Origin: Terriglobia bacterium | GTDB taxonomy: Bacteria; Acidobacteriota; Terriglobia; 20CM-2-55-15 | DNA length: 40,000 nt | Direction of reading: 5' to 3' | NCBI GenBank assembly: GCA_963555775.3 | Contig: CAUVWY020000009.1 | Coordinates: 940,598-980,597 of the forward strand | Shown here: piece after piece, positions 11,364 to 40,000 of the stretch | Numbering within the stretch: the first letter of the stretch is position 1 | Layout of the letters: every line of letters begins with the position of its first letter | The notes under the pieces: generated by a model | Databases searched by the model: none | The model's input: the letters and a program-made list of their open reading frames with translations, nothing else | What the model was told of the DNA's origin: nothing | Program-made: the position numbers and the translations under genes

Positions 11364-12332
11364 GTGCACAGTTATGAGTGGATTGGGGACATCATAGTGC
11401 CGCTATTAATCATTAACTGTACGAACCGAAAACGCGTCAAAGCCAGCGCTGATCTTGACGCCAAGACTTTAAGTCCAGGGTCTCCGTACGAGGTGGCTCA
11501 AGAATGGCGAACCCGCGTATCTCAAACGGTCGGACGACATTGTGCCAACTATTTGTATTGCGGTCGTAGCTTCTCGGAAAGCGTTGTTGCCAGTAAGCGC
11601 CTGAATGCTGATCTCTGGATCGTGTCTGCGGGGATGGGATTAATTTCGGCTGACGACATGATCCCCGCTTACAACCTTTCTGTGTCCAACAAGATGTGCT
11701 CTCCAGGTGCACATATGAGCGGTTCCTGGGACCCCACACTTTGGTGGGAAGATGCCAATAAGATATGGTCACCGACGCGATCAATCAGCAAGTTGATTTC
11801 CGATAACTCGACGAGTCTTGCAATAGTTGGTTTATCGGGCCCTTACCTCGATATGGTTCACCACGATTTGCAGCAAATAACCCCGACCGAACGTGACAGG
11901 GTCCGCTTAATCGTGCATCCCGCCAATCGAAACGCAGTACCTGCGCTCGACCGCAACATCATGCCCTACGATGAAAGGCTTGATGGGCCTGACAGTTCGT
12001 TTCGTGGCACACGGAATGACTTTGTCGCCCGTGCCGCAAATCATTTCTGCTCCCTGTTGGTCAACAACTGTGACCGTTCCGTCAACTATCACCGAGATCT
12101 TGTGGCGCGAAGCTTGAGCACGCTTCAGCACACACAACGTATTCGAAGAGAACAACGAAATGACACCGAAATTGTCCAGTTAATCATTCGCAACTGGGCC
12201 GATGCGCACGGTCGATCGGGCCGTATGCTTAGAATTCTCAGGGACAAAGAGGCCGTCTCATGCGAACAGAACCGATTCAGGCGACTGTTCCATACAGCCG
12301 CAAACGAAATCACGATTCAGGAACAACAATGA
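11364..12332 (+). CDS. Unknown protein, first gene of the 7-deazaguanine module (DUF6884-like N-terminal pattern; possible DpdC-position protein)
   Basis: It is translationally coupled (ATGA) to the next gene. The N-terminal pattern LLIINCTNRK...ANYLYCGRSF...LWIVSAGMGLISADDMIPAYNLS resembles small conserved domains of the C-x-x-x-K / LY.G..F / SA..GL / P.Y type. The start is uncertain: GTG 11364 or GTG 11395. Confidence 0.55.
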   Translation: MHSYEWIGDIIVPLLIINCTNRKRVKASADLDAKTLSPGSPYEVAQEWRTRVSQTVGRHCANYLYCGRSFSESVVASKRLNADLWIVSAGMGLISADDMIPAYNLSVSNKMCSPGAHMSGSWDPTLWWEDANKIWSPTRSISKLISDNSTSLAIVGLSGPYLDMVHHDLQQITPTERDRVRLIVHPANRNAVPALDRNIMPYDERLDGPDSSFRGTRNDFVARAANHFCSLLVNNCDRSVNYHRDLVARSLSTLQHTQRIRREQRNDTEIVQLIIRNWADAHGRSGRMLRILRDKEAVSCEQNRFRRLFHTAANEITIQEQQ

Positions 12333-12725
12333 CGCAAGAAACACTGACCATCCGCGCTCTGAAAACAAGTCAAGGTGACGGCGCAGATGTCTATTCCTTT
12401 TTTGCGCCTGGGCGTGACATTGTGCGGATCGCCGATATTTCCCGCCTGGAACGCGACGAGGATGAAGACTTAAGGGGATTTCAGCGCAAAGACATCAAGA
12501 ACCACATCAAAAACATCGTCGAATATCTCAATCAAGGGAACGTCCTTTTTCCGAATGCGATCATCTTGGCATTCACACGAGAGATTCAGTTCAAACAATC
12601 GCGCGGGCCGAACCAGAGGAATCTGACTGATGTGGCGTCCATGGGAACATTAAGCATCCCAATCCGAGAAGAGGGCGACAGGGCCGCCTGGGTGGTCGAT
12701 GGTCAGCAACGGTCGCTTGCTCTAG

Positions 12726-14579
12726 ACCCTGAATAAGCGCGATTGAGGAAGTATCGATAGTGAAAAAGTAGCGGAAGTACCCGAAATGTCCCCGTCCCGT
12801 GCGAAAAAGAATTTGCAGAATCCTGACGGAAAAGGAGGCATTTCGGATGAACGATTATACGCGCAAGAACATGAGGAATCGCAAGCGGCGAATCGAGCGT
12901 CGGCTTGGGGACCGGCATTGGAGGGAACAGTCGGCGCCGATGTTGTCGGCGAGTAACATGCACTATGAGATGGGCAAGCGGACGCGGGGGACGGCGGTGG
13001 GCGGTCTTGGGGCGATGCATCGGGTGGCGCGGCGGACGGGTCTGATCGAGGCCATCGACGCGCGGGTGGATGTGCTGAAGCGGCATCTGCCGTATCACGA
13101 GTCGGATCACGTGTTGAACATCGCCTACAACGCGTTGACGGGAGGGACGTGTCTGGAAGACATCGAGTTGCGGCGCAACGACGAAGCATACCTGGATGCG
13201 CTGGGGGCGCAGCGGATACCGGACCCGACCACGGCGGGCGACTTTTGCCGGAGATTCGAGCCCGGCGACGTGGAGAACCTGATGGAGGCGGCGAATGAAG
13301 TGCGGCTGAATGTGTGGCGGCAGCAACCGGCCGGTTTTTTCGACGAGGCGGTGTTGGACGCGGATGGGACCCTGGCGCCGACCAGCGGGGAATGCAAGGA
13401 AGGGATGGATATCGCCTACGACGGGACATGGGGCTATCACCCGTTGTTGATTTCACTGGCGAACACCTCCGAGCCGTTATACCTGGTGAACCGGAGCGGC
13501 AACCGGCCCTCGCATGAAGGCGCGGCCCCGCGGTTCGATCAGGCGATCGGGTTGTGCCAGCGCGCCGGGTTCCATCGGATCCTGCTGCGCGGGGACACCG
13601 ACTTCAGCCAGACCCGGCATCTGGATGGATGGGACGGCCAGGGCGTGGACTTCATCTTCGGTATCGACGCGAGGGCGAACCTGGTGGCGCGGGCCGATGC
13701 GCTGGAGCCGGACTGCTGGGCAGTTCTGGAGCGTGAGGCCAGATACGAGGTGGCCACCCAGCCCCGCCAGCGTCCCGACAAGGTCAAGGAACGGATCGTT
13801 CGGGAACGCGGTTTCAAGAACGTTCGCTTGCGGGGCGAAGACGTGGCCGAGTTCGCCTACCGGCCCGGCGCCTGTAAGCGGGACTACCGCGTCGTGGTGG
13901 TGCGGAAGAATCTGTCGGAGGCCAAAGGGGAGTGGGTGTTGTTCGACAAGATCCGGTACTTCTTCTACATCACGAACCGTGCCGGTCCCGCCGACCGGAT
14001 CGTGAAGCGCGCGAATCAACGGTGCAATCAGGAGAATCTCATCGAGCAACTCAAGAACGGCGTCCGGGCCTTGAAAATGCCGGTGGGCGACCGGACCGGC
14101 AACTGGGCCTACATGGTGATGGCGTCGCTGGCCTGGACCCTGAAGGCGTGGTTTGCGTTGCTGCTTCCCGAAACCGGACGCTGGGCCCCGAAGTATCGGG
14201 CCGAGAAGCAGACCGTTCTACGCATGGAGTTCAAGACGTTCCTGAACGCCTTCATCCTCCTGCCGTGCCAACTCGTGCGTACCGGCCGGCGCATCGTCTT
14301 CCGGCTCATGGCCTGGAACCCGTGGCTGTCCGTCTTGTTCCGTGCCGTGGATGTGTTGCGTCGTCCCCTGCGATGCTGACCCGATCATGGATCTGAGCCC
14401 GGGCGGTCGAGGTCCCGGTTGCTGTCAACCCTTCAAACAGACACGGCGAGGCCCCCACTGGAACAGACGCAACTCGAACCGGAGGCCGGGACAAAACGAT
14501 CCCGGAACGGAAGGTTATGCCTCCAACTTTATGGCTGGGAACCGGCCGTTCGCCATCTGGTTATGCGCTTGTTTTGGGT
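12726..14579 (+). mobile_element. IS1380-family insertion sequence (about 1854 bp)
   Basis: It is flanked by a CTAG direct repeat (12722-12725 and 14580-14583). Imperfect terminal inverted repeats are ACCCTGAATAAGCGC... and ...GCGCTTGTTTTGGGT. It encodes a single transposase. Confidence 0.85.
12847..14379 (+). CDS. IS1380 family transposase
   Basis: ATG 12847 follows AAGGAGG (12832-12838). The sequence ...HLPYHESDHVLNIAYNALTGGTCLEDIELRRNDEAYLDALGAQRIPDPTTAGDFCRRF... matches IS1380-type transposases as I recall them. Confidence 0.9.
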   Translation: MNDYTRKNMRNRKRRIERRLGDRHWREQSAPMLSASNMHYEMGKRTRGTAVGGLGAMHRVARRTGLIEAIDARVDVLKRHLPYHESDHVLNIAYNALTGGTCLEDIELRRNDEAYLDALGAQRIPDPTTAGDFCRRFEPGDVENLMEAANEVRLNVWRQQPAGFFDEAVLDADGTLAPTSGECKEGMDIAYDGTWGYHPLLISLANTSEPLYLVNRSGNRPSHEGAAPRFDQAIGLCQRAGFHRILLRGDTDFSQTRHLDGWDGQGVDFIFGIDARANLVARADALEPDCWAVLEREARYEVATQPRQRPDKVKERIVRERGFKNVRLRGEDVAEFAYRPGACKRDYRVVVVRKNLSEAKGEWVLFDKIRYFFYITNRAGPADRIVKRANQRCNQENLIEQLKNGVRALKMPVGDRTGNWAYMVMASLAWTLKAWFALLLPETGRWAPKYRAEKQTVLRMEFKTFLNAFILLPCQLVRTGRRIVFRLMAWNPWLSVLFRAVDVLRRPLRC

Positions 14580-15310
14580 CTAGAGCAATCAGATAATTCC
14601 GGCATCCCGGTTCCTGTAGTCGGTTTCATTTGTGAGGATCTGCAAACACAGCGCGAGCAGTTCATCCTGGTAAACAAAGCGAGACCCTTGCCTCGCCGCC
14701 TTATCAACGAACTTCTTCCCGAAACCGGTGTCCTCCTTCCGCGCGATTTAGCTGTCAGAAAGATACCAAGCAAACTATGCCACCTTTTGAACCGCGACCC
14801 GCAGTCGCCGTTTTATCGATTGATTAAGCGAATGTCTGACGCAAACTAATCCGCTGCCGTTATCGTCGATTCTGCGATCATAGACATGATCAAACACAGC
14901 ATTAACAATCCACTCGGAGCGCTGTCCCCTTACAAAGGGACACGGAACGGCAACGCTGAAATCGATTCGATGTACCGCGTTACATGCGGTTTCTGGTCGG
15001 CAATGAGGGACGTTTTTGCGGACGCGTGGGGTAAAGACCCGCGCGAAAGCCGGTTGATGCACTCGGCTGGGATTCAAGCCGCAGGCGTACTGATGGACCG
15101 TATCACTGCGCGACTAGGATCTTATGACGAGAGCACGTCTAAGAAATTCAAGCGCGATTTAGAGTGCATGGCACCGTATTGCCATTGGACTAGTGGTACT
15201 TGGGAGGGCCTTGGTCTCGAATGGAACGAGATTCAGAGTATCCCGCGACACATTCGCGGATTGGCCGACGAACTGGTACGGATCTATAACCAGACTACTC
15301 GCTCTTGACT

Positions 15311-16585
15311 ATGGAGTTTATCTACGCAGACAGCCTGGACTACGTCGATCCCAATTTTGATTTTGAAACGGATTCAAGTAGCCCTGGACGCGAGCGCTAC
15401 TGGGACGACAAATTCGCTCATGAAATCCTGGAGTGTGCGCCGTATGACGGGATTTTAGTCTCGCGTGGGGTAGTTGGAGATCACCGATTCCCAGGAAAGT
15501 ATTCTGAGGCACAGGCACATAGGTTCAGACGTGTCGGTGCACGCGCATTTCTTCGCTTCAATGGCGAGAAAAACCGCGATAAGAAGATCTTCGGTGATTG
15601 CGGTGCGTTTTCGTACCACAAAATGGACAGCCCGCCGTATTCGCCAGAAGAGATCATCGAATTTTACGAAGATGGGAAGTTCACGCATGGTTGCTCGATA
15701 GACCACATTATCTTCGAGTTCAATCGCGACAACTCGGCTACTCCGTCAGAGAACGCCCGGAAGCGGTCGAGGATAACAATCGACTTTGCCGAAAGGTTTA
15801 TCGACGTGTGGCGGCAAAGGGGTTCTCGATTCGTGCCTATCGGTATCGTTCAGGGTTGGTCGCCCAAGAGCATGGGCGATGCTGCGGAATCCTTGGTGAA
15901 ACTTGGTTATGACTATCTCGCACTCGGAGGTATGGTCCCACTGAATGCCCGATCCATCCATCTTTGTCTTGCAGAAGTGCGTGCCAGAATTCCGAGCAAG
16001 GTCCGAATCCATCTTCTCGGTTTTGCCAAAGCGGAACAAATCACCGAATTCACAAACTACGGGATCACCAGTTTTGACTCGACCTCACCCTTACTCCGAG
16101 CCTTCAAAGATTCCAACCGCAATTACTATGTCAATAGTGGCGCTGGCGGCCTGGAATATTTTTACGCAATCCGCGTTCCACAGGCTCTTGAGAATGTTGG
16201 GGTTAAGCGCCTAGTAAGAGAAGGACTCGTCAAGCAAGATGAACTCGTTCGATTGGAGGCGTCCGCTCTTCGGACACTGCGCAGCTTCGACCGCGGTGAA
16301 AGCGATCTAGACGATGCGATCAATGCCTTGTTCCATTATCAGAGGAAACTTTCGACCGCGAAGGATGACAGCGCGAAAGTCGAACGAAGTATTGCGCAAT
16401 TGATGGAGCGCTATCGGAAATCTCTAGCAGCAGCACCATGGAAAAATTGCCCATGCCGGATCTGCAGGACTTCTGGAATTGAAGTGATCATCTTCAGAGC
16501 AAGCAACCGGAACAAGCGCCGCGGGATCCATAATCTGCAGTCGTTCTATAAGTTAGTGACCGAATTGGAGCGACCAGAAAAATGA
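15311..16585 (+). CDS. dpdA: DpdA-like DNA-guanine transglycosylase (tRNA-guanine transglycosylase superfamily)
   Basis: TGT-like elements are present: FGDCGAFSY, LALGGMVP, GITSFDSTSP (equivalent to the catalytic GxDxFD region) and a C-terminal zinc site CPCRIC...H. The context includes queC/D/E and DGQHR genes. An alternative TTG start at 15305 overlaps the upstream stop. Confidence 0.8.
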   Translation: MEFIYADSLDYVDPNFDFETDSSSPGRERYWDDKFAHEILECAPYDGILVSRGVVGDHRFPGKYSEAQAHRFRRVGARAFLRFNGEKNRDKKIFGDCGAFSYHKMDSPPYSPEEIIEFYEDGKFTHGCSIDHIIFEFNRDNSATPSENARKRSRITIDFAERFIDVWRQRGSRFVPIGIVQGWSPKSMGDAAESLVKLGYDYLALGGMVPLNARSIHLCLAEVRARIPSKVRIHLLGFAKAEQITEFTNYGITSFDSTSPLLRAFKDSNRNYYVNSGAGGLEYFYAIRVPQALENVGVKRLVREGLVKQDELVRLEASALRTLRSFDRGESDLDDAINALFHYQRKLSTAKDDSAKVERSIAQLMERYRKSLAAAPWKNCPCRICRTSGIEVIIFRASNRNKRRGIHNLQSFYKLVTELERPEK

Positions 16586-17670
16586 CCAAGATATTGCAAT
16601 TTATTGGGGTTATTGCGAACCAATCGAAACAGCACACCGTTGTTTCGTTTCCCGCGCTGGCAAACGAACTGCACAAAATTGCGGACATTCACCGGGCCGG
16701 TCGAAGAGTTAGTGGTGTGCTGGAGGGCTTCCAACGCCCACGGATTGCCAATCACATAAAGGAGATCCGGACTTATCTACTGCAACCGGACGCGATCCTT
16801 CCAAACTCGATTGTCATCGCATTTTCCGACGGGGTCACGGTAGAAAAGGTGGCGCGTCGTATCGCGATTGTCTCGGTTGACTGTGAAAAGGGTCCGCCTG
16901 GCCTCATCGTTGATGGCCAGCAGCGCCTACACGCACTGACGAGTTCGGGCCGTGATGATTTTGAAATTTTTGTGTCAGCATTTATTGCCAATAGTGAAGA
17001 CGAGTTGCGCGCGCAATTCATTCTGATAAACAACACCAGACCGCTGCCGAAATCGCTTATTTACGAGTTATTACCGACGGTGTCTGGCCTGCCTTCCTCG
17101 ATGAAAAGTCGGTCGTTTGCGTCCAAACTAGCCGGTCGATTGAATTTTGAAACAGAGTCGTCGCTCTTTGGGCAAATCTGCATGCATACCAGCCCTGAGG
17201 GGATCATTAAGGACACGTCGATACACAGGGTCATCATGAATTCCGCTAGTGATGGGGCGCTTAGAGAACTCAAACATAGTGAGGATTTCGAAGACCGAGC
17301 ATTCAACCTGATCAGCAATTTCTATCAGGCGGTGCAAAACAGCTTCCCACAAGCGTGGAGAAATCAAACTCCAAGAACCTCACGACTTGTCCACGGTGCT
17401 GGCATCATAGCGATGGGTTACGTTATGGAATACCTCTACGCCCGAGATTCCGCCTGTGAAATAGACGAATTCGAACGCGGCATATCACCCCTGATTGATT
17501 GCACTGCATGGACGGCCGGGAACTGGAACTTTCCAGACGGGGAGTGCCGACCGTGGAACGGTATTCAAAATGTCGGACGGGAGATCCTTAAGCTGACCGA
17601 TTATCTCCTGCGCGTTCTCAGAAACGCACCGGCATCAACGGCCGTTGTGCCCATGCGGGTCTTCAAGTGA
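16582..17670 (+). CDS. DGQHR-domain (DndB/DpdB-like) protein, paralog 2, apparently intact
   Basis: ATGA overlap with dpdA. Motifs: [39 protein letters not shown] and [20 protein letters not shown]. Confidence 0.85.
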
Positions 17671-18380
17671 GTCTTCCATCATCGAATAAGGCCCTGGTGC
17701 TTTTTTCCGGAGGTCAGGATTCCACCACGTGCCTGGCGTGGGCGTTAACCCGGTTCGACGATGTCTACACCATTGGGTTCAATTATGGTCAGCGGCACGC
17801 GGTCGAACTTGAGTGTCGCACCAGGATACTGGAGCAAATTCCGGCCGTTTCCGACTGGGTGGGTTCGATCAAGGGGGACCACTTGGCACGCCTTGATTTC
17901 CTCCCGGCACTCGGAGATTCCGCCTTAACATCGAAACGAAAGATAGAGATAGCGGCATCCGGTTTGCCGGCGACGTTCGTACCCGGGCGCAATATATTCT
18001 TCCTGACTGCCGCCGCTGCGCTTGCCTACCGGTTGGAGATTCGACACATTGTTGGGGGAATGTGCGAAACCGATTTTTCTGGTTATCCAGACTGTCGGGA
18101 TGACGCAATTAAGAGTCTTCAAGTAGCACTTAACATCGGGATGGAAAGCAGGTTCGTGCTTGAGACGCCCTTGATGTGGATAGACAAAGCCGAAACTTGG
18201 GAACTTGCCCACCAGATTGGTGGCGAACCACTGATCGACATCATTCGAAGAGATACGCACACGTGTTACTTAGGCGATCGGACAATAGAACATGAGTGGG
18301 GATTCGGATGCGCAACCTGTCCGGCATGCGACCTACGCCGCAATGGTTATTTAGCTTTTCGCAAAAGAACCTTAACCTGA
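17667..18380 (+). CDS. queC: 7-cyano-7-deazaguanine (preQ0) synthase QueC
   Basis: GTGA overlap with the upstream gene. It has the PP-loop [12 protein letters not shown] and the C-terminal zinc cluster CYLG...[11 protein letters not shown]. Confidence 0.9.
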
Positions 18381-18393
18381 GAGGTGATGAGCG

Positions 18394-19482: not shown

Positions 19483-19494
19483 CTGTGGCTCCAC

Positions 19495-20136
19495 ATGACA
19501 TATTCGGTAAAGGAAATATTCCCGACGTTACAGGGTGAAGGTGCGCAGTCAGGACGGGCAGCCGTGTTTTTAAGGTTTAGCGGTTGCAATCTATGGAGTG
19601 GTTTGGAGCGTGATCGTTCGACCGCAATCTGCAGGTTCTGTGATACGGATTTTGTGGGTGCTGATGGCCCCGGGGGCGGCAATTTTCCAACTGCAGAGTC
19701 CCTCGCGGTCCGGATCGAAAACTGCTGGGTAAGCCAGGCTGGGAAAGAAGGACCCCGATTTGTCGTATTTACAGGCGGAGAACCTGCCCTGCAGGTTGAT
19801 GACGGCTTGATTGCAAACCTTCATGCGCTTGAATTCGAAATTGCAATAGAGACGAATGGCACTTTATCCATACCAGATGCCGTTGATTGGGTGTGTGTCA
19901 GTCCAAAAGCCGGTGCGCAGTTGAAGATTGAGACGGGCAATGAACTAAAAGTTGTGTTCCCACAAAGAGGGATGAATATGGAGGCCCTGTCGGCTCTCGA
20001 TTTCCAACACTATTATGTTCAGCCAATGGATGGTCCCAGGATCGAACAAAACACCAAAGCGGCCATCGCTTATTGTCGTAAGCACCCGCAATGGCGCCTT
20101 TCAGTTCAGTCGCACAAATATCTAGGTATTCCCTGA
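19495..20136 (+). CDS. queE: 7-carboxy-7-deazaguanine synthase QueE (radical SAM)
   Basis: EIFPTLQGEGAQSGRAAVFLRFSGCNLWSGLERDRSTAICRFCDTDF gives a CX14CX2C cluster-binding motif. The length of 213 aa fits the short QueE type. Confidence 0.9.
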   Translation: MTYSVKEIFPTLQGEGAQSGRAAVFLRFSGCNLWSGLERDRSTAICRFCDTDFVGADGPGGGNFPTAESLAVRIENCWVSQAGKEGPRFVVFTGGEPALQVDDGLIANLHALEFEIAIETNGTLSIPDAVDWVCVSPKAGAQLKIETGNELKVVFPQRGMNMEALSALDFQHYYVQPMDGPRIEQNTKAAIAYCRKHPQWRLSVQSHKYLGIP

Positions 20137-30521: not shown

Positions 30522-33500
30522 AGCTGGCCTGCCCTTTCGAGCTGCCGGCGGATCTCCTGAAGTTCGACCGAAAGCGAGGAGACTGCTTCCGCGAAGGGGT
30601 CAATACCGTACTTCTGCGATTCGCCCGCCAGTCGTGCCTCTACGGAACAAAGGATTTCGTCGAGTTTCATTCGCAGTTGGTCGCACAGACAGACGACGGG
30701 TTCGTAGCCGCGTCCCAATATCGTGAGAACATGTCCGCGGGGTGCCCCATCAGCTATCTTGCCAGCGTCATCAAACGCCGCCATTACCTTCATCCTGCGG
30801 AACTCCTCAAGAAACTGGAGCACCTGCTTTGTATCCATACCCGTCGTGAGACCCGCAGACATCGCCGTTTCGATCGTCTCCTTCGCCACCCGAATCAGCG
30901 CGTCTTTGTCTGTTCCCTCGCCAAGCCAGGCGCGGGTTTCGTTCCGCCAGTCAACCAGTCGCCGTTGCGCTTTCACGACTCCAGAACTGAGTTTCCTCAG
31001 GTCCGAGTACGTCGTTCGAAAAGCGGCAAATTCTGGGACACCGGACGGCGTTGGCAGCGACTCACTAAACTTCCAAGAGGCCACGGTCCTTTCGATTGAC
31101 GACTTTAGACGCATGACATCGATCGCATGCACCGCGTCCCCTTGGCCTTGCCGCGCGCCGATCAGACTTAGGAGATGGCCCTGCCACGACAGTTGGCCGC
31201 GTAACTCTCTTCCGCCTTGCTCCCGGCATCGCCGCAGTTCTTCAGTGAATTCAAGCCACGCCGCAAATTCTGCATCCGTGTTGGCCGCTGCATTCACCGG
31301 CGCAGATTCCGGTGCATCAGCGAACATCGCATTGACAAGTGACGCGTGATCGCGATCCTTTGCAGCGGCATCAATGCCCAGCGCTCGGGCACCGGTCAAG
31401 AGCCCTTCGACAAATGCAGGAATTGGATCCCAGTTCGCCTTAAAGTACCTTCCCCGCACGAAGATGCGCGCACGTTCTGCCATTCTGCCGACGAATGCCC
31501 CGTACTTCGCCAAATCATTTTCGGCATCCGCGTAGTCCCATTTACCTTTATGAACCGCGTGAAATCGAATCAGCGCCATGAGGGCCGAGTGAACGCTCGC
31601 GCTGGCGGCTTGGTCCACACGATCAGCGTCCGAGCATACTGCGATCATTCCGTCGTCGGCGGTTCGTCCCTCGTTTCCAGCAGCGTGAGGAATGTAGATC
31701 CAGTTGAACCACAAAGCCAATGGCGCGTCCCTACGAGGTCGATAGAGATCCCAATCCCACTCAACGAAACCCTTTAGCGCCTCTGCAATCCACTTGCGAA
31801 GTTGATTGGCATCCGCTTGCGGAATAAGCACGCCGCTCCGCCACTTCTCCAGTATTTGCTCCCAGTTCGCCTCAAGAGGACCCTTGGATGTACGCTTCTC
31901 AAGTTTCTCAGTTTTCTCAGTTTTCTCGGGTTTCTCGGGACGCTTCGGTGGTGTGCTGTCTTTGGAAAATATGCGGCGATCCAGACCGAACGCAGAGAAT
32001 ACACGCGGTTCTATTTGATCTATTTCGGACAGCGTATCCGGGAAGTCACCCCAATACCCAAGAAACCGCAGATAGCGCTCGAAGGCCTGCACTGGCACAC
32101 GCCGTTTCACTTCTTCCGCGATCCCAGCCGGCAAGGGTCTGCCGGGAGCGCCGAATGTCTCGGATGGAAAATTACCCGCCTCAAAGAGATCGCGATGATT
32201 CAGCACGGTAGTAATAACGTTCTGAATTACAAATCGGGGATTGTAGACGAGGCGACCGTTCTGGCTGCAGCCCGCGTGACTCATCTGGTCAATCGCCGCA
32301 GCATTGAAAGGAAATAGTTCATAACCATCAGACGACACGCCAAACGCGTCGAGCGTCGCACGGGCTTCTGGTTCGACATCTGCTTTGAAGACAGGAATTC
32401 CCTCGTGTTCGACTGCGAATTCCGGTGCGGCAACTCTGACTGCCTCTTCCAGGGCATTCTGACCCAGGCGCGCCGCGTTCAGGTACGCTCCAACGAGTTT
32501 TTTGATTCTCGAAAGAATCTCTTCCTCAGTTCCTGGTTCATCCGGTATACGAAACTCAACATTCGCACGCGTGAGTACAGTTGCCGTGTCCATATAGCCG
32601 GTCGTGTACGCCAGCGCAGTTCGCATAGTGCACAACTCCTGACGGCCATCTCGAAACGCCCCTTGGATGATTACTTGCAGCAATTGCTTCTGGAGCCCTG
32701 ACAAGACCGCGAAATCTTCTACGAGAAGCACGAGTTCGCGATGCTCCTTAAACAACTCCCGCCGCACCGCGTCGAACAATTCCGAAACAGTGGGATCGAG
32801 ACGCAGCAAGCGTTGTTTGGCGCCATCGAGGGCGCCGTTCAGGATATGGGCCGCCGTGGCGCGTCGGTCGCCGCGGTCGAACTGAGCCAATGCCTTGGCT
32901 TCCACTCGGCCAAGCGCGCCCCGGTCGATCGCTTCTGGATCGAATTTCAGATCGTCCGCGATAAAGGAATGTTGCCGATCATCATCGCCGCTGGCATCAC
33001 GAACCTCCGTGAGTTGTTCGACAAGCCTCTTGACTACACCATCACGCCCATCTGGAGTCTGAACGAAATGTTTATCCCTGAGTAATTGGTTGCGTAACAG
33101 CGCCTGGAGCATGTCGGCACGACAGAACCCCTCACGTTCGCGAGCACTCTTGTCGGCTGGATTCTTCAGGAGCGCGGCGGCAGCCTCCGTATACATCTCA
33201 TCGATTGTGTGGGCGAGCATCTCGCACAGCAGGCCCGCCGCTTCGCGCGGTTCTAGTTCCTCTTGTGCCCGAACGAGTTCCGTACGGAATCGGTCGTACG
33301 CAGAACCGCGCAAGTCCTTGAGAATAATACCTAGGACACCTTTCAGGCTCATCCCCTTGGGAATCCGTAGGATGACGCGCTGATCGTTCCCCGGTTGTAG
33401 CCGGATCTGTGCGTCCAACCATCGAATCACGTGCGACTTTCCGATGCCGGAACTGCCAACAATGGGAACAATGCGCCGACCGTCTGGCTCATCCGCGAGG

Positions 33501-33694
33501 AACCACTCGAGCAATTCGCGCTCGCCACAGGTCCCCACTTTCTCGCGGTCTCCTCCAATCACGCGCCGCTCGAATTGCATCGGTTGATGAACCGCCAGCA
33601 ACACAGCCTTGTCAGCACCTTCTGCGTCCGTCTTTATGCACACCATCACGTCGGACTCACGCGGCCAGTACCGGAGAAGGTCTCGTGTCGACAT
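30518..33694 (-). CDS. Large P-loop NTPase (1058 aa), function unknown
   Basis: Walker A motif IVPIVGSSGIGKSHVIRW lies near the N-terminus. There is a long helical C-terminal region and an internal PEKPEKTEKTEKLEK linker. The ATG directly follows the TAA of the upstream gene. Confidence 0.75.
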   Translation of the reverse strand: MSTRDLLRYWPRESDVMVCIKTDAEGADKAVLLAVHQPMQFERRVIGGDREKVGTCGERELLEWFLADEPDGRRIVPIVGSSGIGKSHVIRWLDAQIRLQPGNDQRVILRIPKGMSLKGVLGIILKDLRGSAYDRFRTELVRAQEELEPREAAGLLCEMLAHTIDEMYTEAAAALLKNPADKSAREREGFCRADMLQALLRNQLLRDKHFVQTPDGRDGVVKRLVEQLTEVRDASGDDDRQHSFIADDLKFDPEAIDRGALGRVEAKALAQFDRGDRRATAAHILNGALDGAKQRLLRLDPTVSELFDAVRRELFKEHRELVLLVEDFAVLSGLQKQLLQVIIQGAFRDGRQELCTMRTALAYTTGYMDTATVLTRANVEFRIPDEPGTEEEILSRIKKLVGAYLNAARLGQNALEEAVRVAAPEFAVEHEGIPVFKADVEPEARATLDAFGVSSDGYELFPFNAAAIDQMSHAGCSQNGRLVYNPRFVIQNVITTVLNHRDLFEAGNFPSETFGAPGRPLPAGIAEEVKRRVPVQAFERYLRFLGYWGDFPDTLSEIDQIEPRVFSAFGLDRRIFSKDSTPPKRPEKPEKTEKTEKLEKRTSKGPLEANWEQILEKWRSGVLIPQADANQLRKWIAEALKGFVEWDWDLYRPRRDAPLALWFNWIYIPHAAGNEGRTADDGMIAVCSDADRVDQAASASVHSALMALIRFHAVHKGKWDYADAENDLAKYGAFVGRMAERARIFVRGRYFKANWDPIPAFVEGLLTGARALGIDAAAKDRDHASLVNAMFADAPESAPVNAAANTDAEFAAWLEFTEELRRCREQGGRELRGQLSWQGHLLSLIGARQGQGDAVHAIDVMRLKSSIERTVASWKFSESLPTPSGVPEFAAFRTTYSDLRKLSSGVVKAQRRLVDWRNETRAWLGEGTDKDALIRVAKETIETAMSAGLTTGMDTKQVLQFLEEFRRMKVMAAFDDAGKIADGAPRGHVLTILGRGYEPVVCLCDQLRMKLDEILCSVEARLAGESQKYGIDPFAEAVSSLSVELQEIRRQLERAGQL
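31895..31948. repeat. Short 9-bp-period tandem repeat inside the ATPase gene
   Basis: CTTCTCAAG TTTCTCAGT TTTCTCAGT TTTCTCGGG TTTCTCGGG ... on the plus strand encodes the (P/T/L)EK x5-6 linker. Confidence 0.7.
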
Positions 33695-33951
33695 TTACCT
33701 CATCCCCGTACGCACGAAGTGGCTGACTGGACGCAATGCGCGGCCACCTCGACCGAGCAACATGCGCTGCGGTGCATCAGACCGTGCTTCGAGCCGAAGT
33801 TCATCGTTGGCTTCGAGGGTCAAGAGCGCCGCCGAGAGACTGAGCGACACTTCAGCCGCGCGTTGGGCGCGCCACGGGCCCTCTGTGCCAATGTAGATGA
33901 GACACCTTCCCTAACGTTAATTAGTGAGCAGGGCGGGAAGGAAGATAACCT

Positions 33952-34440
33952 GTGTTGGTGATTAAACCAGAAGAGGAGAAAGAATCGCGGGCAACGGAAG
34001 GAGCCCGTAGGGCGACTGGAGTTGGGCGCGATTCGGCCGATGGGAATGGTGCCGGTCCGGATCCGGAGGTCGCCGATAAGGCGACGCGTCGACGATTCAG
34101 CGCGGAGTATAAGCGCCGGATCGTACGAGATGCCGACCGGTGTACGAAGCCCGGTGAGGTGGGCGCGTTGTTACGCCGTGAAGGGGTGTACTCATCGAGC
34201 CTGAGCACGTGGCGTCGGCAACTCGATGCCGGGGAGTTGGCCGGCGTCGGATCGGTCAAACGTGGACCGAAGGCGCAGCCGATAGACCCGCGGGATAAGC
34301 GGATTGCGGAGTTGGAACGGGAGACTCGGCGTCTGGAGGCGAGACTCGGGCAAGCCGAGACGATAATCGCCATTCAAAAAAAAGTTGCGACGCTATTAGG
34401 AATTCCGCTGAATACGATCCAGGACAAGGAGAACGGTTGA
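33952..34440 (+). CDS. IS3 family transposase OrfA (HTH)
   Basis: GTG start follows GGAAGGAAG. The sequence includes RRRFSAEYKRRIVRDA and a leucine-zipper-like C-terminus (ELERETRRLEARLGQAETIIAIQKK). Confidence 0.85.
   Translation: MLVIKPEEEKESRATEGARRATGVGRDSADGNGAGPDPEVADKATRRRFSAEYKRRIVRDADRCTKPGEVGALLRREGVYSSSLSTWRRQLDAGELAGVGSVKRGPKAQPIDPRDKRIAELERETRRLEARLGQAETIIAIQKKVATLLGIPLNTIQDKENG
34376..34384 (+). promoter_or_regulatory. Probable programmed -1 ribosomal frameshift site (A8G) of the IS3 element
   Basis: The run AAAAAAAAG lies near the end of orfA. orfB is in the -1 frame and is open upstream of its listed ATG. Confidence 0.6.
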
Positions 34441-35441
34441 TGGAAGCGGCCCAGACCCACTCTGCCGAGTTGGGCGCCGCACCCGCATGCCGGGCCTTTG
34501 GAGTTCCCCGTGCATCGTTCTATCGTCACCGGCAACGGCGAGCCGAACCCGCCCCAGACCCGATCCGTCGGCGATCGCATCGAGCGTTGAGTGAGGTGGA
34601 GCGCCAAGAGGTCCTCGACCTGCTGCATGGCGATCGCTTCGTGGACCAGGCGCCGGCTCAGGTCGCCGCCGCCCTGCTGGACGAGGACCGCTATCTGTGT
34701 TCCCCACGAACGATGTATCGGATCCTGGAAGCGAATCAGGAAGTTCGCGAACGAAGGAACCAGCGACGCCATCCCGCCTATACAAAGCCGGAGCTGTTGG
34801 CTACGGCTCCGAATCAAGTTTGGAGTTGGGACATCACGAAGTTGAAGGGACCCCAAAAGTGGACCTACTTCTACCTGTACGTGATCCTGGACATCTTCAG
34901 CCGCCAAGTCGTGGGCTGGATGGTCGCCGATTGCGAATCGGCGAATCTGGCCAAAAAGTTGATCCAGAAAGCCTGCGACAAGCAACAGATTGATCGTGAT
35001 CAACTCATACTCCACTCCGATCGTGGATCGTCGATGAAGTCCAAGGCGGTGGCGCTGCTGTTGGCCGATCTGGGAGTGACGAAGTCTCACTCCCGACCGT
35101 ATGTATCGGACGACAATCCATTCTCGGAAGCGCAGTTCAAGACGCTCAAGTACCGGCCAGGCTTCCCGGACCGTTTCGGTTGTAGCCAGGACGCCAAGGC
35201 GTTCTGCAGGGACTTCTTCCACTGGTACAACAATGTCCACTACCATTCGGGACTGAACTGGTTGACACCGGCTATGGTTCACCACGCCCGTACCGACATC
35301 GTCATCCAAAAACGGCAGCATGCCATGGATTGTGCGCGGCAACGCCACCCAGAACGCTTCGTCAACGTACCCAGAACGATCCCAGGGCCGCCCGACAAGG
35401 TGTGGATCAATCCACCCGTAGAATCGCAGGCGGTAGCTTAA
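34437..35441 (+). CDS. IS3 family transposase OrfB (DDE integrase core)
   Basis: WSWDITKLKG...YLYVILDIFSRQVVGW...LHSDRGSSMKS...YVSDDNPFSEAQFKTLKY is the rve-type DDE pattern. Confidence 0.9.
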   Translation: MMEAAQTHSAELGAAPACRAFGVPRASFYRHRQRRAEPAPDPIRRRSHRALSEVERQEVLDLLHGDRFVDQAPAQVAAALLDEDRYLCSPRTMYRILEANQEVRERRNQRRHPAYTKPELLATAPNQVWSWDITKLKGPQKWTYFYLYVILDIFSRQVVGWMVADCESANLAKKLIQKACDKQQIDRDQLILHSDRGSSMKSKAVALLLADLGVTKSHSRPYVSDDNPFSEAQFKTLKYRPGFPDRFGCSQDAKAFCRDFFHWYNNVHYHSGLNWLTPAMVHHARTDIVIQKRQHAMDCARQRHPERFVNVPRTIPGPPDKVWINPPVESQAVA

Positions 35442-36193
35442 TTGTTGAACCCACGTGTCTCACACTTGTTGACATTCACCGGGGCGCGCCATCTTGTTCT
35501 CGATCGAGACGCGATAGCGACCGCCATCAACGATTGGGAGCGAATCCGCTAGCCCCGAAAAGAAATCGGCCTGAGGCAACTCCTTAGCTCCACGAAACAC
35601 CGCGTCGAGTGTGAAGCGCACTGCAACTGCTGGGTGTGGCACAAAGCTTATCTTCGTCGTCTTCCATCCGATTCCTAGAAATGTGGCCCACTCACTGAAA
35701 CCCGCCCAACGTGTGTCATTTCTAAAAGGCCGAGGCTCGACGCCTTGCGCGTCCTGAAGCGACTCAACACCGCCCTTGTAACTGGCCGGAAAGCCGTACG
35801 GGTCTTGCGCCAGTGCCCATGCGATTGCGCGTGTGCAATCGGACGCCTTTGCATCTTCGCGGACTTCATCGTTGTCCTGCATGAATGCGGGGTTGTTCTC
35901 ATTCTTCAGAACCAGTCGAAGAACTGCGGCACGCACACTTGGCAAGTCATCGGCGGCTATGCCAGCGATTGTTGATGTCAGATGAATGACGCCCCCGACA
36001 TCGTCGAAGAACCCCAACTGCTTCCACCGATTCAAGGTCATTCTGGCCAGTTCAGGCTTGCCTTCCGGCACGACTGACGAAGGCGCTACCAGTCTAATAA
36101 GCTCCGAATCCGGTCGCGGACCGTACGCGAGCACGGCCCGCCTCAACGCGAGCAGCACCGAAAGCAGACCGTCTGAAGGACGGTTGAGAATGC

Positions 36194-36817
36194 TCATGAC
36201 TGCAACCTAGCAAGGAGATCCTCTATCGACAGATGCTTTACTACATCGAGCAGGAGCCTTTGCGGTTGCGCCGGGTCCGGAGTGCTCCGGGGAACGACAA
36301 TAATGTGACGCGGGCGGTGGACAATCATTACTCTTTTCAGCGCCCCTAGGGCCAGACACCGCTCCCCCAGCAGTGTGAGTCTCGGCACGGGCGCCGCAGG
36401 GGCCATGCGACTATCCAAGTCCGCTGTCGCGCGAATCACAAATCGAAGTGGCGCCCGAGACGTCAGTTGCGACCATTCACGACTGGAAAGACTCCCATCG
36501 GGGAGTGCTAGTTCCGTGATGCCATCATGACTTAGGTTTTTTACCGGTGTAGTCCGACAGGCTGCTAGTTCCGTGATGCCATCAGCTACCGAGTAACGAA
36601 GAAGGCTGAGCAGACGCTCCCGCCATTGTCTCATCTCCCTGAAAGCATCACCGAACACCTCTTCGTATGACACCCAAGCCCGGCCTACTTCGTCTGAGCA
36701 GGGAGCCAGAGCACGCTCGAAGGTCGCTGATAGTACAGCAGCGGTATTGGTGATCGTGGTCACCTCGGGCTCTGGAGACCGCAAACCCACCGCATTTTTT
36801 GTCTTGTAGTCGGGCAA
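36194..36817 (-). CDS. Unknown 207-aa ORF (possibly the frameshifted C-terminal part of the RecQ-like gene) containing a 57-bp MITE-derived in-frame insertion
   Basis: It has a TTG start, a 58-nt out-of-frame overlap with the RecQ-like ORF, and a 4-nt overlap with the downstream gene. The peptide DGITEL occurs twice, 19 aa apart, because of the duplication and insertion at 36508-36584. Confidence 0.5.
   Translation of the reverse strand: MPDYKTKNAVGLRSPEPEVTTITNTAAVLSATFERALAPCSDEVGRAWVSYEEVFGDAFREMRQWRERLLSLLRYSVADGITELAACRTTPVKNLSHDGITELALPDGSLSSREWSQLTSRAPLRFVIRATADLDSRMAPAAPVPRLTLLGERCLALGALKRVMIVHRPRHIIVVPRSTPDPAQPQRLLLDVVKHLSIEDLLARLQS
36528..36568. mobile_element. Partial, diverged MITE end (37 bp + CTAG)
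   Basis: TGACTTAGGTTTTTTACCGGTGTAGTCCGACAGGCTG+CTAG corresponds to the right end of the 130-bp element (TGACTTAGGTTTTTGATTCGGTGTTAGTCCGACAGGCTG+CTAG). It is bracketed by a 20-bp direct repeat, CTAGTTCCGTGATGCCATCA, at 36508-36527 and 36565-36584. Confidence 0.7.
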
Positions 36818-38841
36818 CTTCCCGCGAATATCGGCGGGATTACGATCGGGTTTTCCAGGGTGTAGGCCTGACGAAAGATCTCATTCAGGGGGCGCCGTAC
36901 ATCGCGGAGTTCCTTGACTGATTTGAGTCCCTCCTCGTCGGCAGAACGAAGCGTCGCCCTCGCATGAGCCACAACGTCATCCCAATGGGCCTTGTCCGAG
37001 TGGCGCGTATCACGAATCCGTACTGCCACCTCTCGCGCGAACCGCTCCAATATTGGTCGCCGCCGCTTCTCGAACCTCTCGTCGCTTTCATCGTCCAACC
37101 GATCAATCACCGGCGGCGGATGTGCCGCAAAACTGATCAGGCCGGCCTGTGCCATAAGAACGAGGGTCCGCAGATTCCACGACGCGTTTAGCTCTCCCAC
37201 GTCAGCGATGTCGGCCGGCCTATCATCCAGTGAAAGGATGTACGTGTCGTCACTGGTCCGATGGTGCCGGACCCACATTGCATCCCATCGTTCAAATGCC
37301 CGGTCGATGCTAATCAGCCGTTCCTTGCCCAATGCCACGGCGGTGGCAACGTCTGAACGCGTAATCACGATGAGAGCAACTGCGGCCCGTCCATCGCGAC
37401 CGGCCCGTCCAACCTCCTGATAGTAGCGATCGATAGTCTCCGGTAAACAAGCGTGTACGACAGATCTGACTTCTTGCTGATCCATACCAAGGCCGAACGC
37501 CGATGTAGCGACGACAATGTCGACTGCGGAACCTCGCCAGTCCCGTAACACGTCGTCACCGCCCAAAGCCGCGAGATCGCCTCCACGCACAAGCCGGGTA
37601 CGACGCAATCCGCTGTTCTGCAGGCACGCATACCAATGTGCAGCGCGCTCACGAAGTGTTGTGTAAAGGATGAGCGGTCGCGGGAGGTGCCACATAGCTT
37701 CAAGGATGCGGGTCGAACGTTCGTCTTCTTCATCCACCGCGTGAATCAGGAAGCCCGGTTCGGGACGGAGTTCCGGTTCTGATACAACTTGGCAGCCCCC
37801 ATTGCCGAACAATTGCCGCAACGTTTCGCAGCATTCTGAGGTGAGCGTCGCAGTCAGAAGAAGTGTCCGGAATCTTGCCGCCGGTGGGCAAACGGCCAGC
37901 AAGGCATCTTTGAGCCCTGCAATGCTCTGAAACTCTGGTCGGAACTGCTGGCCCCATTGCGTCACGATGTGAGCCTCATCGATCGCAAAGACACGCAGAC
38001 GCCCTTCACGTGCGGTCTCGAAAAGAGGTCCACGCAGGGCTCCCATTACCGCCTCTGCCGAAGCGAACACAATTGGAAGGCTACCGTCACGTATCCCCGC
38101 CCTAATGGCGTTCTTCGAGTCGGCGTCGAGGCCGCCGTGATAAGCACAGGTCACATCGGTTTGAGGTCGGCCCGTATCCAACTGTCCGGCGAGTTCACGA
38201 AAGCGTTCCTCCTGATCTTTCGCGAGTGCAGTCGTTGGGACGACAACGAGCGTCAGTCCGCCCTCGGATCCCCAGACGAGAGCGGGCAATTGGAAGGCAA
38301 GCGTCTTTCCTCCACCTGTTGGCAAGCTGACAATCGCTGTGGATCCAGCCGGCATGAGAAACGCTGCCTGCACAGCGGCCCGCTGGCCGCTCGAGACGTA
38401 CTCCGAATGGCCCGTGAATTCTGTTAGGAGTGGATCGTTCGGGACAGGGCGCGCTTGCCTGCGCAGAACCTCACCGATCGCTGCGTCCACTACGTCTGGC
38501 GCGCCAGGATCGAGCCATGAGGGCTCCCATCGTTGCGCGCGTACGACGTAATCTGCTCCCGCAACTCGCGCGTTGCAACTGAACTGTTTCCAGAGTTCTG
38601 CGGTCGGCCAATCCTCGCCGCGGGGAACGCGCAATTCTGCCTCTTCTCCGAACTCAAGTTGGCATCGTAGCATTCCCTGACGCAGAAGCCCGGCGATGTC
38701 AGCCCTCCCAGTCTTTCCTGATGCCGCAGGAATCCCTTGAAGGGCATCGCGGACTCGTGCCAGAAACCGGTCGCCGATCGGTATCGGAAACGGTTCGGCC
38801 GATAGAACAAGTCGCTGCAACTCGTGGATGTGCGCGATCAC
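36760..38841 (-). CDS. RecQ-like DEAD/DEAH-box helicase (DpdF-like)
   Basis: Helicase motifs: LPTGGGKTLAFQLPAL, FAIDEAHIVTQWGQQFRPEF, LTATL, and QEVGRAGRDG. GTGA start overlaps the upstream gene stop. Confidence 0.85.
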   Translation of the reverse strand: MIAHIHELQRLVLSAEPFPIPIGDRFLARVRDALQGIPAASGKTGRADIAGLLRQGMLRCQLEFGEEAELRVPRGEDWPTAELWKQFSCNARVAGADYVVRAQRWEPSWLDPGAPDVVDAAIGEVLRRQARPVPNDPLLTEFTGHSEYVSSGQRAAVQAAFLMPAGSTAIVSLPTGGGKTLAFQLPALVWGSEGGLTLVVVPTTALAKDQEERFRELAGQLDTGRPQTDVTCAYHGGLDADSKNAIRAGIRDGSLPIVFASAEAVMGALRGPLFETAREGRLRVFAIDEAHIVTQWGQQFRPEFQSIAGLKDALLAVCPPAARFRTLLLTATLTSECCETLRQLFGNGGCQVVSEPELRPEPGFLIHAVDEEDERSTRILEAMWHLPRPLILYTTLRERAAHWYACLQNSGLRRTRLVRGGDLAALGGDDVLRDWRGSAVDIVVATSAFGLGMDQQEVRSVVHACLPETIDRYYQEVGRAGRDGRAAVALIVITRSDVATAVALGKERLISIDRAFERWDAMWVRHHRTSDDTYILSLDDRPADIADVGELNASWNLRTLVLMAQAGLISFAAHPPPVIDRLDDESDERFEKRRRPILERFAREVAVRIRDTRHSDKAHWDDVVAHARATLRSADEEGLKSVKELRDVRRPLNEIFRQAYTLENPIVIPPIFAGSCPTTRQKMRWVCGLQSPR

Positions 38842-40000
38842 GCTTCCTCCAGGTCATGGGATGCAAGTACCACGGCCCCTGCGGAATCCACTCGCAGGAA
38901 CGGGGTCTCAATCCCGACAGCAAGGGCGTCGCTCAACTGCAGTTCAAATCGAGCCATCTTCTCCTCAGATTCACGGACTGAGCCAGCGAGTTGCGCAATT
39001 CGACTCTTCAGAGCTTCGTTTACGCTTGCAGCAAACTCCCGCGTCTGCAATGCACAGCGGTCACAGCGTTCTCTGAATCGCGGGTCGTCCCGAACCTCCC
39101 GCTCGGCGACCTGCCGTGCGCGGTAGCATAGTTCGCCCCAATCCCCGATGGACACGAGCGCGTCAACGCGCTCCCATCGATCTATTCTGAGATTCACATC
39201 TCTACCGCCATCAGCCCTTGGGCTCTTCTGATATGGCCATCCAAGCACGGTCAAGACTTGCTCATTCTTCACCGGCACAAGATCTCCATTGAGCCACACG
39301 GTTCGATACTCGACGGAAAACGCCTCATCTGCCCGTCGCCGCAGTGAGGCGAGAGAAATGCTGTCATCAAGATCGGTTCCGACTTTGGCGAGATCAGCCT
39401 CCACAACGAAATCGAATCTGAAGAAGAGGCGCGGGAATCGAGTCGATCTCGGTACATAGCGCCACATCGCGAAAGCGGTCCCACGGTCATCACTGCGAAC
39501 TAATGCTTCGAAACCATCAACGAACGGATGGCCTACTCGAAGCAAGCTTGTTTGCTTAGTCTCTGCAATCGCTCTCTCAAAAGTGACAGGGAGCATTGGC
39601 AGTTCTGCCCAATCGCGAGTCTCTGGATCCCAATCGATGCAGGCGTCAAATCGCCGTACTGCCTCTAACAGTGGGACATGCGTTGGCCGGCGGAGGTCAT
39701 GGGTGTATCTCAGGATTCCTGGGCCGAGTCGACGGCATCCAAACTGAAGCAACTCAGTGACCCACGAGTTCAGAGATCTTTCACCCTGTGTCTCAGCCAA
39801 TTCATCGGCTTCCACAAGAGTGGCGAAGAATGCCTCGTCGGCCGCAGCATCTCCTTCAACAGAATCAAGCGACTCCTGCGCCCGGATTCGGCGCAATTCG
39901 GCGTCGAGTCCCGTTTCTGGATCTTGCATACGCGCGACTTCCTCATCAATAGCCGTGCGGCCATCTTCCAGAAGCCGTGAACGAATCCGTGCTGTCCCTT
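38838..40000 (-). CDS. C-terminal part of a larger protein (5' end outside the window), first visible gene of the minus-strand operon
   Basis: The frame is open from the window edge through the listed ATG at 39929 (...RIRSRLLEDGRTAIDEEVARMQDPETG...). No helicase or nuclease motif is visible in the roughly 387 codons present. Confidence 0.7.
   Translation of the reverse strand, partial: GTARIRSRLLEDGRTAIDEEVARMQDPETGLDAELRRIRAQESLDSVEGDAAADEAFFATLVEADELAETQGERSLNSWVTELLQFGCRRLGPGILRYTHDLRRPTHVPLLEAVRRFDACIDWDPETRDWAELPMLPVTFERAIAETKQTSLLRVGHPFVDGFEALVRSDDRGTAFAMWRYVPRSTRFPRLFFRFDFVVEADLAKVGTDLDDSISLASLRRRADEAFSVEYRTVWLNGDLVPVKNEQVLTVLGWPYQKSPRADGGRDVNLRIDRWERVDALVSIGDWGELCYRARQVAEREVRDDPRFRERCDRCALQTREFAASVNEALKSRIAQLAGSVRESEEKMARFELQLSDALAVGIETPFLRVDSAGAVVLASHDLEEA

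Follow-up and report, generated by a model that had tools for sequence, protein, structure and literature searches.

The stretch of DNA analysed here, which we call the window, comprises 40,000 nucleotides of a Terriglobia bacterium (assembly GCA_963555775.3, contig CAUVWY020000009.1, positions 940,598 to 980,597). From position 11,364 to its right-hand end it carries what is very probably a Dpd island, a restriction-modification (R-M) system that marks DNA with 7-deazaguanines. The host of the island is a chromosome of the Terriglobia (Acidobacteriota). A plus-strand operon in the order dpdC-dpdB1-dpdA-dpdB2-queC-queD-queE converges on a minus-strand operon in the order dpdE-F-G-H-I-J-K-D, and together they encode all of DpdA to DpdK (11 Dpd proteins, with DpdI a weak match) and three enzymes for 7-cyano-7-deazaguanine (preQ0), QueC, QueD and QueE. 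Genes were assigned by profile searches of the open reading frames (ORFs) of the window against NCBIfam equivalogs, PADLOC and Pfam, and the matches to curated equivalog models, with E-values of 1e-50 to 1e-294, are far beyond chance.

An initial annotation, made without database searches, had proposed a Dpd-like system of two modules with coupled genes. The ORF listing and the profile searches recover every one of its genes where it had placed them, and curated NCBIfam and PADLOC models match DpdA through DpdK, though DpdI weakly. The plus-strand modification operon and minus-strand restriction operon are both seen, and adjacent genes share 4-nt overlaps (ATGA/GTGA/TCAT/TCAC) that are consistent with translational coupling. 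Related loci used for comparison are referred to by L numbers; L001/L007 represent Terriglobia chromosome OZ253554.1, and L003 and L004 come from other metagenome assemblies. The features of the island, including insertion sequence (IS) elements and miniature inverted-repeat transposable elements (MITEs), are as follows.

7209-7330: second MITE copy, in an intergenic CTAG site outside the island (100% identical to the dpdJ copy; absent from L001)
11364-12332, plus strand: dpdC, DUF6884/YaaA-like, intact (PADLOC DpdC PDLC02815, 283 bits)
12329-12725, plus strand: dpdB1 5' fragment, pseudogene (NCBIfam DpdB profile positions 2-124)
12726-14579, plus strand: IS1380-family element in dpdB1 (transposase 12799-14379; NF033539, 279 bits)
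14580-15308, plus strand: dpdB1 3' fragment with a TAA at 14847-14849 (DpdB profile 122-210 and 223-352, in one frame)
15311-16585, plus strand: dpdA, DNA-guanine transglycosylase, intact (NF041059, 533 bits, cut-off 200)
16582-17670, plus strand: dpdB2, DGQHR/ParB-like ATPase paralogue, intact (NF041060, 368 bits, cut-off 300)
17667-18380, plus strand: queC, intact (TIGR00364, 197 bits, cut-off 150)
18394-19482, plus strand: queD, three tunnelling-fold (T-fold; PTPS) modules (Pfam PTPS and TIGR03367, three stretches each)
19495-20136, plus strand: queE, Cx14CxxC type, intact (TIGR04508, 335 bits, cut-off 240)
20137-20383: convergent intergenic junction (blastn and direct alignment; homology to L001 ends at 20144)
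20384-22630, minus strand: dpdD, intact (NF041061, 516 bits, cut-off 300)
22627-23145, minus strand: dpdK, phospholipase D (PLD)/HKD nuclease, intact (NF041068, 168 bits, cut-off 100)
23142-24185, minus strand: dpdJ 3' fragment, pseudogene (DpdJ profile positions 1145-1482)
24186-24307: MITE of 122 nt inside dpdJ (absent from L003, L004 and L005)
24308-25700, minus strand: dpdJ middle fragment (DpdJ profile positions 702-1157)
25701-27642, minus strand: IS1634-family element in dpdJ (transposase 25752-27527; NF033559, 342 bits)
27643-29817, minus strand: dpdJ 5' fragment, DEAD/DEAH helicase part (DpdJ profile 1-696, 980 bits)
29820-30521, minus strand: dpdI, positional orthologue, intact (NF041066, 40 bits, cut-off 150)
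30518-33694, minus strand: dpdH, P-loop NTPase, intact (NF041065, 641 bits, cut-off 450; weak Pfam AAA_22)
33695-33878, minus strand: dpdG 3' fragment, the final 60 codons (85% identity to DpdG of L003 and L005 by tblastn)
33879-35481, plus strand: IS3-family element in dpdG (orfA 33952-34440, orfB 34437-35441; NF033516, 200 bits; HTH_Tnp_1)
35482-36197, minus strand: dpdG 5' fragment (NF041064, 181 bits, profile 1-235/290)
36194-38841, minus strand: dpdF, RecQ-like superfamily 2 (SF2) helicase, pseudogene (NF041063, 734 bits, profile 19-670/813 only)
38838-40000, minus strand: dpdE, SNF2 helicase, 3' third (NF041062, 231 bits, profile 717-1047)

preQ0 is produced from the FolE product by QueD, QueE and QueC. 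In an intact version of the island, these three enzymes would supply preQ0, DpdA and DpdB would insert it into DNA, and DpdC would form dADG (2'-deoxy-7-amido-7-deazaguanosine); the SNF2, RecQ-like and DEAH helicases, the P-loop NTPase and the PLD nuclease of the DpdD-K set would restrict unmarked DNA. In Salmonella Montevideo, DpdA swaps DNA guanine for preQ0, which requires ATP hydrolysis by DpdB, DpdC turns the preQ0 nitrile in DNA into an amide (dADG), and DpdD-K restrict DNA without the mark (PMC10164549). The window contains no folE, no tRNA gene and no Rfam family (the preQ1 riboswitch included) and no tRNA integration site.

The transglycosylase scores 533 bits on the NCBIfam DpdA model and 528 bits on the PADLOC one, and only 24-42 bits on models of tRNA-guanine transglycosylases (tRNA TGTs). 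Among solved structures its best match is PDB 7UI4 (E = 3e-89), the DNA-guanine transglycosylase of S. Montevideo. The scores and the structure identify the TGT-like protein as DpdA, in line with the initial annotation, which had not taken it for a tRNA TGT. Aligned to 7UI4, the protein keeps equivalents of D95, F99, D130, G206/G207, L236, D256 and F265 and the zinc motif Cys-x-Cys-x2-Cys...His, and the equivalent of H181 is Gln. Bacterial tRNA TGTs have Gln at the position equivalent to DpdA H181. The catalytic residues (Asp95 as acid/base, Asp256 as nucleophile, Asp130 and the zinc site) were taken from PMC10164549, and the numbering of the 7UI4 chain is offset by +20.

The first gene, which had been left unassigned, is dpdC: residues 14-317 align to positions 8-310 of the 312-position PADLOC profile, that is, over its full length. 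In NCBIfam the gene has no DpdC match, a weak YaaA match alone, and in Pfam it has a weak YaaA match and 25.9 bits on DUF6884 (under the cut-off of 30); the protein is 98% identical to its counterpart in L004 and 95% to that in L001.

Two DpdB proteins are encoded, one on either side of dpdA. The ATG of dpdB1 overlaps the dpdC stop (ATGA), and its intact orthologue in L004 scores 460 bits on NF041060, above DpdB2. DpdB2 has a DGQQR motif at residue 111, which DpdB1 also bears, though a pseudogene. DpdB2 shares 34% identity with DpdB1 and 54% with the DpdB encoded downstream of dpdA on an Agrobacterium vitis plasmid. Across the window and that plasmid (L012 18883-22407), the DpdB1 and DpdB2 orthologues are 48% and 54% identical, and paralogues share 30-34%. 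The higher identity of orthologues in different phyla implies that dpdB was duplicated long ago and that both copies have been retained across phyla; redundancy of DpdB1 is unlikely, given that each paralogue is conserved in its own right from Acidobacteriota to Alphaproteobacteria. The sequences fit an old, subfunctionalised pair, perhaps one that forms a heterodimer; by analogy to the S. Montevideo DpdB, which is a homodimer, a DpdB1/DpdB2 heterodimer would be a reasonable idea. The single DpdB of Enterobacter is equidistant from DpdB1 and DpdB2 (37-38%).

On the restriction side, DpdD, DpdH, DpdK, the DpdF and DpdG fragments and the N-terminal DpdJ fragment all score above the NCBIfam cut-offs. 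The 748-aa gene after the PLD nuclease, which had been listed as extra, is dpdD in its usual place, and the protein is 95% identical to those of L003/L004. The gene assigned as dpdI occupies a conserved slot between dpdJ and dpdH, where both annotated plasmids discussed below (Enterobacter cloacae and A. vitis) have a 'hypothetical protein', and its product has the same length (233 aa) as in L003/L004. An ATG start listed at 39929 had raised the idea that dpdE is interrupted there, but its visible reading frame stays open as far as base 40000.

Decay, including mobile elements in at least two restriction genes, had been read from the sequence of the window, and this is borne out by mapping every lesion against the empty or intact site in relatives. 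Four genes are pseudogenes (dpdJ, dpdG, dpdF and dpdB1), with seven lesions in the window. In dpdB1, the IS1380 element interrupts a CTAG in the palindrome TTGCTCTAGAGCAA, which L001 and L004 show as the empty site; terminal inverted repeats were found, and the ends are uncertain by 1 nt. The 3' part is further split, into 14580-14846 and 14850-15308, by a nonsense codon at 14847-14849 (GAA to TAA; GAA in L004 and L001). The gene for DpdJ is broken twice, by the MITE, which has the terminal inverted repeats CAGCCTGTCGGACT and was inserted at CTAG with a 4-bp CTAG duplication, and by the IS1634 element, which has inverted repeats and a 6-bp CTTAAT target duplication, with L004 as the empty site. 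Removal of both, each with one copy of its duplication, gives a 1533-aa ORF with no internal stop, and the restored DpdJ is 98.8% identical to that of L004. The ends of the 122-nt MITE are unlike those of the local IS1380 element.

The IS3 element in dpdG has an A-run slippery site at ~34375 and is flanked by a 3-bp GGG duplication, and its excision in silico restores a 298-aa DpdG ORF. Its ends were fixed at 33879-35481 by three IS3 copies in L009 (99.75-99.94% identical); this comparison supersedes a placement of the ends at TGAGACAC repeats, which gave no target duplication. A third restriction gene, dpdF, is broken by a frameshift, through the deletion of 1 nt from the A-run at 36793-36803 (tblastn frame -2 to -1; nucleotide alignment to L005), and also carries a 57-nt in-frame insert (36508-36564) that consists of 38 nt of MITE end and a 19-nt duplication. 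The perfect target duplications, the identical MITE copies and the restoration of reading frames by in silico excision point to recent insertions. From the three pseudogenes dpdJ, dpdG and dpdF we infer that restriction has been lost, and its predicted loss in this strain is well supported.

Relatives place these lesions in a series. A DpdA scan of GTDB genomes found two chromosomes of Terriglobia metagenome-assembled genomes, at 95% and 85% identity, and a DpdD scan of genome contigs found no relative; the GTDB representative of the lineage has a different restriction operon. L001/L007 are syntenic with the window and their island is uninterrupted. The left flank of L001 matches as well (aldehyde dehydrogenase, LigM-like demethylase, short-chain dehydrogenase/reductase, AbiEi/AbiEii and HI1420-type antitoxin). 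The restriction operon of the window type is intact in L003 and L004, with DpdJ of 1529 aa, DpdG of 297 aa and DpdF of 863 aa. dpdA and the restriction genes occur together, in synteny, in L001-L005, in L008 and on the two plasmids from E. cloacae and A. vitis, which agrees with the initial annotation in linking the minus-strand genes to dpdA-type genes.

Two contigs from another sample, L006 and L009, are ~98-100% identical to the window across the island, and the lesions of the window are common to both. Since these contigs were independently assembled from another sample, the lesions are not assembly artefacts. In L009 (ERZ28669063:ctg20870), extra IS3 copies lie in dpdE and the 5' part of dpdJ (2915-4517 and 14995-16600), a sign that a burst of IS3 insertion is under way within the restriction operon, and L006 has a further MITE copy at the IS1380 junction (1947-2068). 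This sister strain is thus further along in decay than the window strain. The IS1634 region of L009 is rearranged. Elsewhere, L003 has an IS21 element between queE and dpdD (12556-14867), and in L005 (12867-18610) dpdH and dpdJ are fragmented, and IS5-type elements and unrelated genes replace the modification module. Identity to L004, the closest intact relative, is a mosaic across positions 11364-30861 (dpdA 99%, queC 93%, dpdJ 99.4-99.7%, dpdI 90.7%), which suggests that strains recombine frequently within the island.

Taken together, we assign a probability of about 0.9 to the reading that the locus is a complete standard Dpd R-M island of the dpdC-dpdB1-dpdA-dpdB2-queCDE subtype, dismantled here by mobile elements and point mutations. 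Several points weigh against it. The DpdI match is weak (40 bits on NF041066 and 25 bits in PADLOC), and the 5' two-thirds of dpdE lie beyond the window. DpdD-K may differ in how essential each is for restriction, DpdA may or may not work with DpdB2 alone, and Dpd function in the present organism, which is known from metagenome assemblies only, is predicted from sequence.

The layout had been called non-canonical, and the comparison with known clusters does not support that description. As a near-equivalent stand-in for the S. Montevideo cluster (PMC10164549, PMC5699537) we used E. cloacae pPOL9A (NZ_CP086409.1), in which dpdA-dpdB converge on dpdE-F-G-H-(hypothetical)-J-K-D with dpdD last, as in the window. 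The DpdA-K families and the DpdA catalytic residues are common to S. Montevideo and the window. Unlike these enterobacterial systems, the window has two DpdB genes flanking dpdA, queC/D/E in the operon, four pseudogenes and an Acidobacteriota (Terriglobia) host, and its proteins are 22-38% identical to those of pPOL9A.

The duplicated dpdB and the lack of folE, both taken at first as deviations, recur on the A. vitis plasmid CP146243.1, where the order is dpdC-like, dpdB, dpdA, dpdB, queE, queD, queC and then dpdD-K. The core arrangement and the absence of folE are as in the window, and AbiEi/AbiEii genes are likewise nearby. However, the que genes are in a different order, the QueD there is a one-module protein of 118 aa, the modification and restriction modules are separated by several genes, one of them for a VUT/YhhQ-type transporter, and the cluster is undisrupted. 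The GATOR-GC survey (bioRxiv 10.1101/2025.02.24.639861) counted 801 additional dpdB copies in 2,335 unique islands, found QueD in 78% of islands and transposase domains in >20%, treats DUF6884 as dpdC, and includes islands without a restriction operon; Acidobacteriota are not among its eight listed phyla. Already on record are the family, the layout, the extra dpdB, the link to preQ0 genes and to transposases, and islands that lack restriction; the phylum is under-sampled.

The initial annotation had also counted the three-module QueD as non-canonical. This 362-aa protein scores 129 bits on TIGR03367 (cut-off 89), and its predicted structure (AlphaFold2; mean predicted local distance difference test score 87.7, predicted template modelling score 0.87) has three beta-beta-alpha-alpha-beta-beta units. 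The catalytic/zinc motif CxxxHGH occurs in module 2 only (~residues 121-240), and modules 1 and 3 are without the catalytic Cys. Module 2 has AAH at residues 131-133 and C144-x3-H148-G-H150, and C144, H148 and H150 are invariant across 33 homologues. In Foldseek searches, the structures of QueD from E. coli (4NTK) and P. aeruginosa (2OBA) match one module only, with 41-46% identity to module 2, template modelling (TM) scores of 0.86-0.90 and a common CxxxHGH motif; these two proteins are unimodular, whereas the protein in the window fuses three T-fold modules in one chain. No solved structure spanning all three modules was found by Foldseek. Sequence relatives are numerous, with ~100 clusters (50% identity) matching at E<1e-30, most near full length, and hundreds of 364-aa proteins annotated as QueD. 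Thiorhodovibrio has a three-module QueD in a housekeeping queC-queD-queE operon beside tig-clpP-clpX-lon, so the form is no peculiarity of Dpd; that operon and the single-module QueD of the A. vitis dpd cluster rule out specificity for Dpd. A review of T-fold enzymes names uni- and bimodular ones only (PMC5699537), and we found no description of a trimodular T-fold or QueD protein in the literature.

The two operons of the window differ in their similarity to L001. The flank and the modification module are 94-97% identical to L001 at the nucleotide level as far as position 20144, which lies 8 nt beyond the queE stop, and from there on nucleotide similarity vanishes (window 20137-20152 against L001 14826-14841). 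At the protein level the modification proteins are 95-99% identical to those of L001, against 38% for DpdK, 35% for DpdJ and short patches at 25-38% for DpdD. The restriction proteins of L001 are no closer to the window than are Agrobacterium or Enterobacter plasmid proteins. The GC fraction of the window is 0.51 in modification genes and 0.58 in restriction genes, whereas in L001 and L008 the two are alike (0.52-0.53 in restriction and 0.51-0.52 in modification genes). The identity break and the GC contrast indicate that the restriction operon was probably replaced, as a unit, next to a modification operon that was kept by vertical descent. The replacement has its second breakpoint beyond the window. 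In the convergent junction itself (20137-20383) we found no terminator-like site and no terminator or promoter consensus.

Other loci extend the pattern. L002 carries a third variant of the restriction operon, and in L008 the restriction genes come after queE in the same orientation, dpdE-dpdF first. Variants of the operon are ~27-40% identical, one in inverted orientation, and the modification operon has the same identity as flanking housekeeping genes. We tentatively raise the possibility, which we hold to be doubtful, that in Terriglobia the modification operon is chromosomally inherited and the restriction operon is an exchangeable cassette joined a few bases past the queE stop. If this is true, Dpd restriction operons would read the deazaguanine mark generically and would be swappable, and the stepwise loss by IS and MITE insertion seen across sister strains would be the route to synthesis-only (orphan) marking islands.

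To the left of the island, positions 1-7200 have a higher GC fraction (0.62) and carry ordinary metabolism genes, among them those for an aldehyde dehydrogenase and for a LigM-like vanillate/3-O-methylgallate O-demethylase (781 bits). GC falls from ~7300 onward, which would fit a defence island gained by horizontal transfer and made up of AbiE, a toxin-antitoxin pair and Dpd. The AbiEii toxin gene (9621-10552) of the AbiEi/AbiEii pair is frameshifted near 10217-10232, and the L001 orthologue is intact (310 aa). This makes a pseudogene of a second defence gene, next to the island, and hints that decay is general in an IS-active genome. Between AbiE and dpdC, on the minus strand (10546-11258), the gene for an HI1420-type antitoxin of 125 aa precedes a 103-aa ORF without a family match, and the two are probably a toxin-antitoxin pair.

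With restriction very likely gone, the question becomes: does the island still modify DNA? The initial annotation had considered the modification side intact. This holds for DpdA, DpdB2, DpdC and QueC/D/E, and fails for dpdB1 with its two lesions. Residual modification by the six intact proteins is possible, judging from their sequences. The density of lesions is the same on both sides, with 2 in ~6.9 kb of the modification module and 5 in ~15.9 kb of the visible restriction module (both ~0.3 per kb). Both modification-side lesions are in dpdB1, which fits either selection on the other modification genes or chance.

The whole island may be dead. The loss of DpdB1 would then have abolished or crippled modification, with both modules drifting during a burst of IS and MITE activity and the intact genes simply not yet hit. 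We give this close to an even chance. It accords with the equal lesion density, with the frameshift in the neighbouring AbiEii gene, and with the activity of several element families at once and the extra insertions of the sister strain. The loss of the adjacent modification module in L005, along with the fragmentation of its dpdH and dpdJ, points the same way. Against this, seven modification and preQ0 genes are open and 95-100% identical to those of relatives, but this carries little weight because the events are so recent.

Somewhat short of even odds, yet still a serious candidate, is orphan modification. Here restriction would be dead and DpdA, DpdB2, DpdC and QueCDE would go on marking the chromosome with 2'-deoxy-7-cyano-7-deazaguanosine (dPreQ0) or dADG, a mark then kept for another use such as protection from other nucleases or an epigenetic role. 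The intact genes have preserved motifs, the two lesions of the modification side lie in dpdB1, the only gene with a paralogue, and islands with a synthesis operon only are known (bioRxiv 10.1101/2025.02.24.639861). Those islands, which have dpdA/B, in some cases together with dpdC, but lack the restriction operon, correspond to the end state that the initial annotation had proposed. Unlike them, the window keeps its restriction genes as fresh pseudogenes, so that the loss is seen while it is under way, and has also a broken dpdB1. Against orphan modification, the equal lesion density gives no statistical sign of selective sparing, and the conservation of the DpdB1/DpdB2 pair from Terriglobia to an Agrobacterium plasmid argues against redundancy. 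The sister strain, with 0-2 differences per gene, is too close for a test of nonsynonymous against synonymous substitution rates (dN/dS).

It is unlikely, though conceivable, that the lesions were selected because the modules were mismatched. A restriction operon acquired separately may have matched imperfectly, or DpdB1 may have been lost, causing self-restriction and favouring knock-outs. The sharp fall in identity to L001, from the modification proteins to restriction proteins as distant as those of Agrobacterium and Enterobacter plasmids, would agree with this, as would the breakpoint 8 nt past the queE stop, the GC contrast particular to the window and the several independent lesions in restriction genes. 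However, the same pairing of modules is intact in L004 and, within the reach of its contig, in L003, so the pairing is viable. Finally, a tRNA-modifying TGT (queuosine or archaeosine) beside an unrelated helicase/nuclease operon, to which the weak tRNA TGT matches might point, is effectively refuted by the DpdA equivalog score, by the top structure and by the presence of the same helicase and nuclease genes with dpdA in L001-L005, L008 and two annotated plasmids.

As a Dpd system, the window adds little to a known family. Its value lies in a natural series, from intact L004 and L003, through the window with its seven lesions, to the sister strain, to which two further IS3 copies and another MITE have been added; it shows the disassembly of the largest known R-M system. 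L001, with the same modification operon and a very different restriction operon, suggests that the two halves evolve as separable units. These findings bear on what the many Dpd restriction proteins recognise, and on whether modification needs both DpdB paralogues.

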